Below are positions 28,474 through 53,936 of a DNA stretch of 64,000 bases, one piece after another. This DNA is from Nemertoderma westbladi. Its lineage: Eukaryota > Animalia > Xenacoelomorpha. The notes under the pieces are model-generated. The model was not told where the DNA came from. It was given only the letters and a program-made list of their open reading frames with translations, and did no database searches. The number at the start of each line of letters is the position of its first letter. Position 1 is the first letter of the stretch. Both the position numbers and the translations under genes were made by a program. The stretch is from the NCBI GenBank assembly GCA_032718475.1, contig JAUCBJ010000852.1, positions 18,907 through 82,906 on the forward strand, in the 5' to 3' direction.

Positions 28474-31181
28474 CCATCGATTTGGAAGTGCGACAAGGTG
28501 CCCAGCCATCGATATAAACACACCTGTTTGGAACTGCGACAAGGTGCCCAGCCATCGATATAAACTCACCTGTTTGGAACTGCGACAAGGCGCCCAGCCA
28601 TCGATATAAACTCACCTGTTTGGAACTGCGACAAGGTGCCAAACCATCGATATAAACTCACCTGTTTGGAACTGCGACAAGGTGCGCAGCCATCGATATA
28701 AACTCACCTGTTTGGAACTGCGACAAGGTGCCCAGCCATCGATATAAACTCACCTGTTTGGAACTGCGACAAGGTGCCCAGCCATCGATATAAACTCACC
28801 TGTTTGGAACTGCGACAAGGTGCCCAGCCATCGATATAAACTCACCTGTTTGGAACTGCGACAAGGTGCGCAGCCATCGATATAAACTCACCTGTTTGGA
28901 ACTGCGACAAGGTGCCCAGCCATCGATATAAACTCACCTGTTTGGAACTGCGACAAGGTGCCCAGCCATCGATATAAACTCACCTGTTTGGAACTGCGAC
29001 AAGGTGCCCAGCCATCGATATAAACTCACCTGTTTGGAACTGCGACAAGGTGCCCAGCCATCGATATAAACTCACCTGTTTGGAACTGCGACAAGGTGCC
29101 CAGCCATTGATATAAACTCACCTGTTTGGAACTGCGACAAGGTGCCCAGCCATCGATATAAACTCACCTGTTTGGAACTGCGACAAGGTGCCCAGCCATC
29201 GATATAAACTCACCTGTTTGGAACTGCGACAATGTGCCCAGCCATCGATATAAACTCACCTGTTTGGAACTGCGACAAGGTGCGCAGCCATCGATATAAA
29301 CTCACCTGTTTGGAACTGCGACAAGGTGCCCAGCCATCGATATAAACTCACCTGTTTGGAACTGCGACAAGGTGCCCAGCCATCGATATAAACTCACCTG
29401 TTTGGAACTGCGACAAGGTGCCCAGCCATCGATATAAACTCACCTGTTTGGAACTGCGACAAGGTGCCCAGCCATCGATATAAACTCACCTGTTTGGAAC
29501 TGCGACAAGGCGCCCAGCCATCGATATAAACTCACCTGTTTGGAACTGCGACAAGGTGCCCAGCCATCGATATAAACTCAGCTGTTTGGAACTGCGACAA
29601 GGCGCCCAGCCATCGATATAAACTCACCTGTTTGGAACTGCGACAAGGCGCCCAGCCATCGATATAAACTCACCTGTTTGGAACTGCGACAAGGTGCCCA
29701 GCCATCGATATAAACTCACCTGTTTGGAACTGCGACAAGGCGCCCAGCCATCGATATAAACTCACCTGTTTGGAACTGCGACAAGGTGCGCAGCCATCGA
29801 TATAAACTCACCTGTTTGGAACTGCGACAAGGTGCCAAACCATCGATATAAACTCACCTGTTTGGAACTGCGACAAGGTGCGCAGCCATCGATATAAACT
29901 CACCTGTTTGGAACTGCGACAAGGTGCCCAGCCATCCATATAAACTCACCTGTTTGGAACTGCGACAAGGTGCCCAGCCATCAATATAAACTCACCTGTT
30001 TGGAACTGCGACAAGGCGCCCAGCCATCGATATAAACTCACCTGTTTGGAACTGCGACAAGGTGCCAAACCATCGATATAAACTCACCTGTTTGGAACTG
30101 CGACAAGGTGCGCAGCCATCGATATAAACTCACCTGTTTGGAACTGCGACAAGGTGCCCAGCCATCGATATAAACTCACCTGTTTGGAACTGCGACAAGG
30201 TGCCCAGCCATCGATATAAACTCACCTGTTTGGAACTGCGACATGGTGCCCAGCCATCGATATAAACTCACCTGTTTGGAACTGCGACAAGGTGCCCAGC
30301 CATCGATATAAACTCACCTGTTTGGAACTGCGACAAGGTGCCCAGCCATCGATATAAACTCACCTGTTTGGAACTGCGACAAGGTGCCCAGCCATCGATA
30401 TAAGGTCACCTGTTTGGAACTGCGACAAGGTGCCCAGCCATCGATATAAACTCACCTGTTTGGAACTGCGACAAGGTGCCCAGCCATCGATATAAACTCA
30501 CCTGTTTGGAACTGCGACAAGGTGCCCAGCCATCGATATAAACTCACCTGTTTGGAACTGCGACAAGGTGCCCAGCCATCGATATAAGCTCACCTGTTTG
30601 GAACTGCGACAAGGTGCCCAGCCATCGATATAAACTCACCTGTTTGGAACTGCGACAAGGCGCCCAGCCATCGATATAAACTTACCTGTTTGGAACTGCG
30701 ACAAGGTGCACAGCCATCGATATAAACTAACCTGTTTGGAACTGCGACAAGGTGCCAAACCATCGATATAAACTCACCTGTTTGGAACTGCGACAAGGTG
30801 CCCAGCCATCGATATAAACTCACCTGTTTGGAACTGCGACAAGGTGCCCAGCCATCGATATAAACTCACCTGTTTGGAACTGCGACATGGTGCCCAGCCA
30901 TCGATATAAACTCACCTGATTGGAACTGCGACAAGGTGCCCAGCCATCGATATAAACTCACCTGTTTGGAACTGCGACAAGGTGCCCAGCCATCGATATA
31001 AACTCACCTGTTTGGAACTGCGACATGGTGCCCAGCCATCGATATAAACTCACCTGATTGGAACTGCGACAAGGTGCCCAGCCATCGATATAAACTCACC
31101 TGTTTGGAACTGCGACAAGGTGCCCAGCCATCGATATAAACTCACCTGTTTGGAACTGCGACAAGGTGCCAAACCATCGAT
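28474..31181 (-). repeat. 46-bp tandem array (~59 copies): last 36 nt of the ATAD2 Walker B exon plus donor GTGAGTTTAT
   Basis: Minus-strand unit ATCGATGGCTGGGCACCTTGTCGCAGTTCCAAACAG|GTGAGTTTAT. Confidence 0.97.
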
Positions 31182-31311
31182 TTCATCAAAGAATATAATA
31201 CTGGGCCTCATAGTGTAAGCTTGGTCGAACAATAACCGTAGCTGACGTTCACTTTCTCCGACCCATTTACTCAACGTATCCGCTCCTTTTCGCATAAAAA
31301 ACGCAACTTTC
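31146..31311 (-). CDS. ATAD2: ATAD2-like exon (pore loop, Walker B)
   Basis: ACAG|G...CAG|GTGAGT; KVAFFMRKGADTLSKWVGESERQLRLLFDQAYTMRPSIIFFDEIDGLAPCRSSKQ; phase 2 to 0. Confidence 0.93.
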
Positions 31312-31630
31312 CTGTTGACAGAGTAACAAATACAACAAATAACAACAAAGTACAACTAAGTACAACAAGTGCAACAAATACACAAAGTAACAATTAAATT
31401 CAGTTAAATGGCTGTGAAACAATAACGGAACACCGTTAAGTACTACTACTACAAATAGGTCGAGTGAGCTCAATGGTCAAACATTCCGTAGACACACAGA
31501 ATAGGAATTTTATATAACGTTGATGAAAATATTGATAAAAGCAAATGAAAGTAGAACAATAAATAATGTAATTAACACGGCCAGATAGATGTATCTCAAC
31601 GTATTATATCTATCTGCCTCACATAATTAC

Positions 31631-51444: not shown

Positions 51445-53802
51445 CTTTCCTCCGTTTACGAACCATCTGAAACTCGACCCGCCTCAGTAGATATGACACC
51501 CCGGTAGATATCTCGGTCTACTTTCCTCCGTTTACTAACCATCTGAAACTCGACCCGCCTCAGTAGATATGACACCCCTGTAGATATCTCGGTCTACTTT
51601 CCTCCGTTTACTAACCATCTGAAACTCGACCCGCCTCAGTAGATATGACACCCCGGTAGATATATCGGTCTACTTTCCTCCGTTTACTAACCATCTGAAA
51701 CTCGACCCGCCTCAGTAGATATGACACCCCGGTAGATATCTCGGTCTACTTTCCTCCGTTTACTAACCATCTGAAACTCGACCCGCCTCAGTAGATATGA
51801 CACCCCGGTAGATATCTCGGTCTACTTTCCTCCGTTTACTAACCATCTGAAACTCGACCCGCCTCAGTAGATATGACACCCCGGTAGATATCTCGGTCTA
51901 CTTTCCTCCGTTTACTAACCATCTGAAACTCGACCCGCCTCAGTAGATATGACACCCCGGTAGATATCTCGGTCTACTTTCCTCCGTTTACTAACCATCT
52001 GAAACTCGACCCGCCTCAGTAGATATGACACCCCGGTAGATATCTCGGTCTACTTTCCTCCGTTTACTAACCATCTGAAACTCGACCCGCCTCAGTAGAT
52101 ATGACACCCCTGTAGATATCTCGGTCTACTTTCCTCCGTTTACTAACCATCTGAAACTCGACCCGCCTCAGTAGATATGACACCCCGGTAGATATCTCGG
52201 TCTACTTTCATCCGTTTACTAACCATCTGAAACTCGACCCGCCTCAGTAGATATGACACCCCGGAAGATATCTCGGTCTACTTTCCTCCGTTTACGAACC
52301 ATCTGAAACTCGACCCGCCTCAGTAGATATGACACCCCGGTAGATATCTCGGTCTACTTTCATCCGTTTACTAACCATCTGAAACTCGACCCGCCTCAGT
52401 AGATATGACACCCCAGTAGATATCTCGTTCTACTTTCCTCCGTTAACTAACCATCTGAAACTCGACCCGCCTCAGTAGATATGACACCCCGGTAGATATA
52501 TCGGTCTACTTTCCTCCGTTTACTAACCATCTGAAACTCGACCCGCCTCAGTAGATATGACACCCCGGTAGATATCTCGGTCTACTTTCCTCCGTTTACT
52601 AACCATCTGAAACTCGACCCGCCTCAGTAGATATGACACCCCGGTAGATATCTCGGTCTACTTTCCTCCGTTTACTAACCATCTGAAACTCGACCCGCCT
52701 CAGTAGATATGACACCCCGGTAGATATCTCGGTCTACTTTCCTCCGTTTACTAACCATCTGAAACTCGACCCGCCTCAGTAGATATGACACCCCGGTAGA
52801 TATATCGGTCTACTTTCCTCCGTTTACTAACCATCTGAAACTCGACCCGCCTCAGTAGATATGACATCCCGGTAGATATCTCGGTCTACTTTCCTCCGTT
52901 TACTAACCATCTGAAACTCGACCCGCCTCAGTAGATATGACACCCCGGTAGATATCTCGGTCTACTTTCCTCCGTTTACTAACCATCTGAAACTCGACCC
53001 GCCTCAGTAGATATGACACCCCGGTAGATATCTCGGTCAACTTTCCTCCGTTTACTAACCATCTGAAACTCGACCCGCCTCAGTAGATATGACACCCCGG
53101 TAGATATCTCGGTCTACTTTCCTCCGTTTACTAACCATCTGAAACTCGACCCGCCTCAGTAGATGACACCCCGGTAGATATATCGGTCTACTTTCCTCCG
53201 TTTACTAACCATCTGAAACTCGACCCGCCTCAGTAGATATGACACCCCGGTAGATATCTCGGTCTACTTTCCTCCGTTTACTAACCATCTGAAACTCGAC
53301 CCGCCTCAGTAGATATGACACCCCGGTAGATATCTCGGTCTACTTTCCTCCGTTTACTAACCATCTGAAACTCGACCCGCCTCAGTAGATATGACACCCC
53401 GGTAGATATCTCGGTCTACTTTCCTCCGTTTACTAACCATCTGAAACTCGACCCGCCTCAGTAGATATGACACCCCGGTAGATATCTCGGTCTACTTTCC
53501 TCCGTTTACTAACCATCTGAAACTCGACCCGCCTCAGTAGATATGACACCCCGGTAGATATCTCGGTCTACTTTCCTCCGTTTACTAACCATCTGAAACT
53601 CGACCCGCCTCAGTAGATATGACACCCCGGTAGATATATCGGTCTACTTTCCTCCGTTTACTAACCATCTGAAACTCGACCCGCCTCAGTAGATATGACA
53701 CCCCGGTAGATATCTCGGTCTACTTTCCTCCGTTTACTAACCATCTGAAACTCGACCCGCCTCAGTAGATATGACACCCCGGTAGATATCTCGGTCTACT
53801 TT
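51445..53802 (-). repeat. 76-bp tandem array (~31 copies): ~61 nt of exon end plus donor GTTAGTAAACGGAGG
   Basis: Minus-strand unit AAAGTAGACCGAGATATCTACCGGGGTGTCATATCTACTGAGGCGGGTCGAGTTTCAGATG|GTTAGTAAACGGAGG. Confidence 0.95.
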
Positions 53803-53936
53803 TCTCTGTTTAACTTCTATAGGTGTAGGTCGGGCGTACTCTACAGGTGCCGCTAAGATATCATCGACAACCCCACCACCTTCGCCAATCCCATTTAGTA
53901 CAACTCCGTCTTGAATGTTAACCGTGGGCTTCTTTT
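53742..53936 (-). CDS. Probable N-terminal exon of the ATAD2-like gene (195 nt, phase 1 to 1)
   Basis: TTTCAG|AA...GATG|GTTAGT; EKKPTVNIQDGVVLNGIGEGGGVVDDILAAPVEYARPTPIEVKQRKVDRDIYRGVISTEAGRVSD; phase fits both the 54077 donor and the 35735 acceptor. Confidence 0.65.

Follow-up and report, generated by a model that had tools for sequence, protein, structure and literature searches.

How can a splice site be chosen correctly when dozens of copies of it lie side by side in the same intron? The question is raised by the 64,000-nt stretch of animal DNA analyzed here (the window), in which an ATAD2-like gene on the minus strand carries three large tandem arrays, with units of 46, 32 and 76 bp, that each straddle one of its exon-intron junctions. 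A first-pass annotation, made from the sequence alone, had described these arrays as unrelated to one another and read their recurrence in one gene as a sign that introns grow by amplifying their own ends. Repeat detection, a homology-based exon chain and spliced contigs together confirm that three unrelated arrays straddle ATAD2 junctions. We consider it probable that they represent three mirage minisatellites of independent origin in an ATAD2 gene that is expressed. Ordinary slippage would have given rise to them, and they would be tolerated since the spliceosome selects the copy in contact with the full exon.

Membership in the ATAD2/ATAD2B family follows from an AAA domain and from best matches within that family; for exon E3, the best named matches are ATAD2/ATAD2B proteins (234 hits among 3476 candidates). 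Using seven ATAD2/ATAD2B proteins in tblastn searches, we mapped four conserved exons on the minus strand: E3 (35176..35735, 560 nt), which was matched by all seven; E4 (31631..31746, 116 nt), which encodes the Walker A motif GPPGTGKT; E5 (31146..31311, 166 nt), which encodes Walker B and matches Pfam AAA (PF00004); and E6 (28220..28398, 179 nt), which also matches Pfam AAA and is 87–90% identical to homologues. Two more exons were found upstream, E1 (54077..54225, minus strand, 149 nt), the first exon in the window, and E2 (53742..53936, minus strand, 195 nt). All ends of the resulting chain read AG..GT, and the frame of E1, like that of the whole chain, is open: the six joined exons encode 454 amino acids with no stop and are open in one of three frames, so that the AAA exons are intact and phase-consistent, as first described. 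The AAA part of the encoded protein shows 67–80% identity to 32 homologues, reaching 80% with named ATAD2/ATAD2B proteins. Its identity to three Branchiostoma proteins is 79–80%, while those three are nearly identical to each other, and the host is therefore none of the three Branchiostoma species compared. In protein trees of 27 and 32 rows, the second of which omitted one of the 32 homologues for an alignment of less than 200 residues, the sequence forms a long, unplaced branch, and a clade with Branchiostoma is not rejected in the approximately unbiased (AU) test (p-AU 0.295). With the seven homologues, no tblastn match was found in the window below 28220, and the part encoding the C-terminal bromodomain was thus not seen; the window appears not to include the remainder of the gene.

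Each array unit joins exon sequence to the adjacent intron. The 46-bp donor array (28474..31181, minus strand) repeats the last 36 nt of E5 with the first 10 nt of the following intron, and its first copy contains the E5 donor at 31146. In the 32-bp acceptor array (31741..35100, minus strand), the unit consists of the last 26 nt of intron 3 and the first 6 nt of E4. The 76-bp donor array (51445..53812, minus strand) repeats the last 57 nt of E2 and the first 19 nt of its intron, with the donor at 53742 in the first copy. Tandem Repeats Finder (TRF) delimits them at 28481-31181 (58.7 copies, 97% matches), 31741-35095 (104.8 copies, 100% matches) and 51445-53812 (31.2 copies, 98% matches). Our counts agree with the earlier figures of about 105 acceptors and 31 donors and lower the third, about 59 donors, to 57–58. 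The 46-bp array has 58 junction copies, 57 with GT and one with CT, and its last partial unit has lost 14 nt, donor included. An AG is present in 105 of 105 acceptors of the 32-bp array, 104 of which are identical over 32 nt, and a GT in 31 of 31 donors of the 76-bp array. When single sites were swapped, the frame remained open with the exon-adjacent copy alone (1 of 59, 1 of 105 and 1 of 31 positions for the 46-, 32- and 76-bp arrays), which bears out the earlier statement for all three arrays. Without its spare units, intron 3 would measure 101 nt and intron 5 about 93 nt, as computed from unit counts; they now measure 3429 and 2747 nt. The values support a roughly 30-fold expansion of both introns through copying of their own ends.

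Which copies are spliced? Eight sequencing runs were listed, five of which (X1 to X5, three studies) contained the query, and none is recorded as RNA. The runs were compared as assembled contigs against a query that kept about two units at each array end, so that no contig or read spans an array. X4 (sample S3) and X5 (sample S1) were chosen since their word share of 0.80 equals the exon share of the query. In both, contigs skip intron 4 (319 nt), so that E4 is joined to E5; the depth of the skipping contig is 921 in X4 and 49 in X5. The same contig of each run also connects the E5 donor at 31146 to E6 and E3 to the acceptor at 31746, with loose contig ends at E3 and E6. A 2208-nt contig of X4 runs from E1 through E2 to E3, skipping intron 1 (140 nt) and joining 53742 to E3, and spliced contigs of X5 likewise include E1. 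This X4 contig confirms the E2 donor, the exon call that the first-pass annotation had considered less certain. From the intron skipping we infer that X4 and X5 behave as RNA runs; the gene copy is transcribed. X3, a run from the same sample as X5, contains the 46- and 32-bp arrays with no spliced joint, and the joined form is therefore not a genomic retrocopy. The exon-adjacent donor or acceptor is used in the dominant assembled transcript. No contig of X4 or X5 covers the intronic part of the three arrays, even though the 40-bp unit is present in both runs. Taken by itself this would suggest that array-retaining RNA is scarce; contigs drop rare variants and records are filtered, and we did not use it as evidence.

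Could the arrays be assembly artefacts, or heavily inflated? In X2, the units occur at depths of 1125 (46 bp), about 4400 (32 bp) and 640–687 (76 bp), 23- to 200-fold the unique DNA at 21–28, and loose contig ends lead from the arrays into the far flanks seen in the window. Another sample, that of X3, contains the 46- and 32-bp units, the latter at a depth of about 2370 against 36.5, and X1 contains the 76-bp unit cycle. Contig depth is not copy number, but the X2 ratios of 43 (46 bp) and 23 (76 bp) agree with the assembled 31-mer multiplicities of 36 and 24. The perfect homogeneity of the 32-bp array could be taken as a mark of misassembly, as could the lack of any spanning long read among those seen and a depth-based size that departs from the assembled multiplicity of 104 in both DNA runs (170–206 in X2, 65–68 in X3). 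With the units this deep and joined to their flanks, we find an artefact barely credible; the depth data prove that the arrays exist, which removes one of the grounds on which the first-pass annotation said that its reading could fail. The two values for the 32-bp unit hint at length variation between samples of the kind reported for mirages, again with the proviso that depth does not equal copy number. For the two deepest 46-bp contigs among those listed in X3, the ratio is 6–10. X3 differs from the window by six letters and one 27-nt gap, and the main contigs of X2 show no difference; the assembly may come from either sample. A short low-complexity repeat in intron 4 near the E5 acceptor (31325-31389) lacks 27 nt in X3.

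If real and spare sites coexist, what separates them? Local sequence has no discriminating power. The intron part of the 32-bp unit contains a branch-point-like CTAAC, pyrimidines and CAG, and the genuine E4 acceptor and 103 decoys share every nucleotide from −26 to +6. The choice would be positional. At the two donor arrays the first site would win, as it does in human F7. At the acceptor array the last of 105 sites would win, the reverse of first-come or shortest-intron choice: the first acceptor of the array would close a normal 101-nt intron, and the last one is used. Under established splicing models, exon definition across the 116-nt E4 would account for use of the last acceptor. Transcripts that leaked to a decoy would contain a premature stop and be degraded by nonsense-mediated decay (NMD). 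Exon definition or choice by position fits better than the two other routes proposed earlier, stepwise re-splicing and heavy NMD.

We also asked whether RNA structure conceals the decoys. Compared with mononucleotide shuffles, the 46-bp repeat (−44 versus −54 kcal/mol) and the 76-bp repeat (−56 versus −59 kcal/mol) fold no better, and the 32-bp repeat folds slightly better (−18 versus −13 kcal/mol, standard deviation 2.5); on these folding energies, we rejected concealment. Directly past the distal end of the 46-bp array, a 13-bp hairpin with a 7-nt loop is predicted in intron 5 (28436-28468, minus strand), about 40 nt ahead of the E6 acceptor.

Tandem repeats of exon-intron boundaries have been named mirages in amphioxus, where the reports describe donor-side and acceptor-side cases, normal splicing, length instability and an unclear origin, in Adh3, the globins BflGb6 and BflGb9, troponin C and PGBD5 (PMC3087553; PMC3902484). 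Somatic instability is reported for the Adh3 mirage (PMC3087553). The ATAD2 arrays share with these the placement of a unit across an authentic donor or acceptor boundary, confirmed here by spliced contigs, and the unit size (10–160 bp in PMC3087553; 46, 32 and 76 bp here). They also share the retention of spare AG and GT, concerted evolution with odd units at the edges, the occurrence of several arrays per gene and normal splicing of the mRNA, the last as seen in the dominant contigs of X4 and X5 for the 46- and 32-bp arrays and of X4 for the 76-bp array. They differ in scale: BflGb6 copy numbers are 3 and 6, whereas those in ATAD2 are 31, 58 and 105, in kilobase-long arrays of nearly identical units. 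The ATAD2 arrays are thus of the known mirage type but unusually large, and the scale on the acceptor side stands out.

Human genes provide further parallels. In a 37-bp variable number tandem repeat (VNTR) of F7 intron 7, the first unit spans the donor, and among 5–26 identical donors splicing takes the most upstream one, either exclusively or together with the one or two that follow (PMC1557585); 6-16, CBS, LMNB2 and PDGF are other donor-side cases in the same report. The 46- and 76-bp arrays resemble F7 in having a first unit across the donor and in use of the most upstream site. F7 has fewer copies and is on the donor side alone, and upstream-first scanning cannot explain why the most downstream acceptor of the 32-bp array is used. 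In ABCA7, a 25-bp VNTR of intron 18 ranges from 12 to about 427 units and enlarges the intron up to eightfold, and use of the second copy causes a frameshift (PMC5954066). Every ABCA7 unit, like ours, bears a splice signal, there a donor GT in up to about 427 copies, but the unit begins at the GT without exon sequence, is on the donor side and has a measured length effect. The Rogers model, as cited in PMC3087553, derives new introns from AG/GT proto-splice sites that have been duplicated in tandem. Splice signals have been multiplied by such duplication in the ATAD2 gene as well; unlike in that model, no new intron or exon is seen, and conserved junctions were copied whose spares are silent in the assembled transcripts. 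Our literature search, which had limited coverage of subscription papers and supplements, found no invertebrate study that tested junction-spanning arrays genome-wide and no published acceptor-side array of about 100 identical copies, the latter being weak evidence given these gaps. The available text of PMC10078293 does not address junction-spanning units.

The 32-bp array sets one real acceptor against 103 identical decoys that are separable only by position and by the downstream exon. For an invertebrate gene whose ancestral introns were short, this is a clean natural test that sets exon definition against intron definition or scanning. The locus also demonstrates that 100-nt introns can reach 3 kb without a transposon, and it is a warning to annotators, to whom such arrays present dozens of false splice sites.

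How might the arrays have arisen? The first duplication could have occurred between chance short direct repeats, one exonic and one just inside the intron. The 46-bp array finishes with 10 nt that repeat the beginning of its exon copy exactly (10 of 10), and the 76-bp array with 14 nt that agree at 12 of 14 positions with the exon sequence immediately preceding the unit. Together with the incomplete terminal units, these matches fit slippage birth between chance direct repeats for both arrays, in line with the two models of repeat origin described in PMC3389668. Once seeded, the arrays would expand and homogenize by unequal exchange or conversion, leaving edge units behind, in a region that is half tandem repeat. 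Units equal to the consensus number 104 of 105 (32 bp), 27 of 58 (46 bp) and 18 of 31 (76 bp), and the odd ones are distal, with deletions or altered donors; the single odd 32-bp unit, also distal, carries a 4-nt indel. The arrays thus show concerted evolution from which boundary units are excluded, and two places in the exon copy of the 46-bp unit depart from the consensus. At this copy (31146-31181), a switch to the consensus at the two places would replace Leu by Trp in the AAA domain; the exon version is present in four intronic copies. Conversion between array and exon could therefore be a mutational load.

A duplication within an exon would usually be lost, whereas one across a junction would leave the exon intact with all spare copies intronic. 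With such exon-sparing survival, junction-spanning arrays would make up about half of the survivable ones in introns of about 100 nt: in the pre-expansion introns of 101 and 93 nt, 44% and 64% of exon-sparing placements straddle a junction. Purging of decoy signals was rejected, as 57 of 58 (46 bp), 105 of 105 (32 bp) and 31 of 31 (76 bp) copies retain their GT or AG; the spare signals kept in these copies suggest that the copies cost little, and the junction arrays are likely neutral. An origin of the units from dispersed repeats was also rejected, since none of six array units has other matches in the window.

Are junctions more than places where repeats survive? We aligned 15 nt from each side of the 12 junctions to the next 120 nt of intron, with 12,484 control tests (5,004 in the gene part) on a window whose arrays had been reduced to two units. 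Echoes were found at 5 of 12 junctions, namely the three arrays and two decayed two-copy duplications. One of these, of 34 bp, crosses the E1 donor (54028..54092, minus strand; TRF period 34 x1.9; 26 of 32 aligned columns identical). The other crosses the E6 donor (28159..28235, minus strand; 27 of 35 aligned columns identical) and places a spare donor 42 nt downstream; its score, the weakest of the five, is reached by 1.3% of non-array control positions. The duplications at E1 and E6, which the first-pass annotation had not named, point to a recurrent tendency in this gene. The structure itself is the published mirage and not new. The larger claim, that introns grow by amplifying their own ends, holds for introns 3 and 5 but was overstated in its generality. 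The first-pass annotation did not mention three other arrays of 6–8.6 kb in introns of the same gene, for which no junction contact was identified. TRF reports six arrays of more than 2 kb (16-, 46-, 32-, 44-, 76- and 40-bp units), tandem arrays make up 50% of the window, and junction arrays account for 8.4 kb of the 26-kb exon span as against about 21.9 kb, within the window, of non-junction arrays in the same gene's introns; general tandem-repeat growth therefore dominates.

Several findings weigh against birth by ordinary slippage and neutral tolerance as a full account. The echo rate of 5 of 12 compares with 3.3% of controls in the whole collapsed window and 5.3% in the gene part, with score cut-offs that were fixed after the observed scores were known, and among the nine junctions not named in the first-pass annotation two echo (P = 0.03–0.08). 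Short introns do not explain why two of six large arrays fall in introns that make up less than 1% of the collapsed window; the intron of the 76-bp array is 9.6 kb even when collapsed and lies outside the short-intron argument; and the array ends hold no clear seed repeat for the 32-bp unit. On the splicing side, the RNA support consists of one contig per run, representing the dominant form, without read-level counts, from runs labeled 'DNA?'. The E1-E2 contig of X5 ends at 53746, 4 nt before the donor, which leaves the E2-E3 junction to X4, and the sample of X4 has no DNA run to show the arrays there. A rival reading makes junctions genuine hot spots where repeats arise in this lineage, beyond what survival bias explains, for instance if coupling to transcription or splicing led to pausing, R-loops or breaks at exon edges. 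Uniform seeding of the six large arrays on the 33-kb collapsed window predicts 0.08 across the 12 junctions (P of at least three about 5e-5, for a window picked post hoc from a very large scan, without correction), and PMC3087553 terms the mechanism of mirage generation unclear. We nevertheless consider hot spots unlikely: a single window was chosen post hoc, the held-out junctions reach only the modest P value above, short host introns yield their 44–64% straddling without bias, chance direct repeats explain two of three seeds, and the three larger arrays lie away from any junction identified. Junction arrays are locally more frequent than uniform chance predicts, and short introns account for part of this excess. 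Half of the window is tandem repeat, three equally large arrays show no contact with a junction identified here, and two host introns began at about 100 nt, so that a dedicated splice-linked process need not be invoked. A matched genome-wide excess at junctions, if found, would bear on the open question of mirage origin. It is a long shot that exon edges are favored minisatellite birthplaces through a transcription- or splicing-coupled bias, which drove introns of about 100 nt to kilobase size and forced strict exon definition; the 32-bp array would then be a natural, length-variable assay of the skipping of perfect upstream acceptors, each with a branch-point-like motif.

A different objection grants the neutral origin and attributes accuracy to recursive splicing through the arrays or to NMD clearance of mis-spliced products, and not to exon definition. 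Every alternative single-site choice yields stops, intron 3, stripped of its array, would extend a normal 101 nt to the first acceptor, and human CBS, 6-16 (PMC1557585) and ABCA7 (PMC5954066) use a second copy at some level. A recursive (ratchet) site has an AG directly before a donor and leaves intermediates in nascent RNA. Each 46-bp copy reads CAG then GTGAGT, such that joining E5 to a decoy CAG would restore the native donor, and judged by their sequence these copies could act as ratchet points. In the 32-bp array, by contrast, the restored site shares 5 of 9 positions with the donor consensus, where the six real donors share 6–8, and it equals the true E3-E4 junction, at which a second cut must be avoided; the downstream sites of F7 are functional yet unused (PMC1557585). 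On balance this route seems rather improbable. Selection could also have kept the arrays to tune ATAD2 dosage, through a length-dependent leak to NMD or a transcription delay, as the effect of ABCA7 VNTR length on splicing and expression (PMC5954066) and the depth ratios that hint at length differences between samples might suggest. Three unrelated units and two decayed ones resemble turnover, however, and non-junction arrays of the same size adjoin; we regard this reading as very unlikely. Independent mirage minisatellites born by slippage, with position deciding which copy is spliced, thus remain our preferred account.

The three other large arrays lie in introns of the same gene, and no junction overlap was identified for any of them; those of 44 and 40 bp serve as internal controls. 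The 16-bp array (19601-26739, 7.1 kb, 85% matches) starts about 1.5 kb below the E6 donor, with no exon identified beyond it; from its divergence, it is probably older or faster-diverging than the rest. The 44-bp array (44875..51024, about 140 copies) lies inside intron 2, and the X4 contig joins E2 to E3 across it. The 40-bp array (55411..64000, at least 215 copies, cut by the window end) occupies the intron upstream of E1. At the start of E1 (54225-54226), two different sequences are spliced on in X5, one of them also in X4. These are alternative exons upstream of E1, both outside the window, within which the exon ends in the loose contig ends were not found. The 40-bp array was considered as a fourth junction array and rejected, since its unit holds neither upstream exon end and neither end is in the window. 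Near its start (55021-55480), the 40-bp unit is present at high depth in the splice-type runs (1066 in X4, 128 in X5); a flanking intron contig of X4 at depth 11, with 10 differences in 420 nt, suggests pre-mRNA or DNA of a divergent individual.

Elsewhere in intron 2 (37300-41250), several diverged copies of a dispersed repeat with a period of about 1.3 kb and many short TCTAGAAC motifs were noted by eye. Downstream of E6, the minus strand contains transposon-like frames with an integrase core (PF24764) at 511-1278 and weakly at 1538-2488, a transposase (PF13843) at 7740-8429, and a 795-amino-acid open frame at 16362-18746 with no Pfam match.

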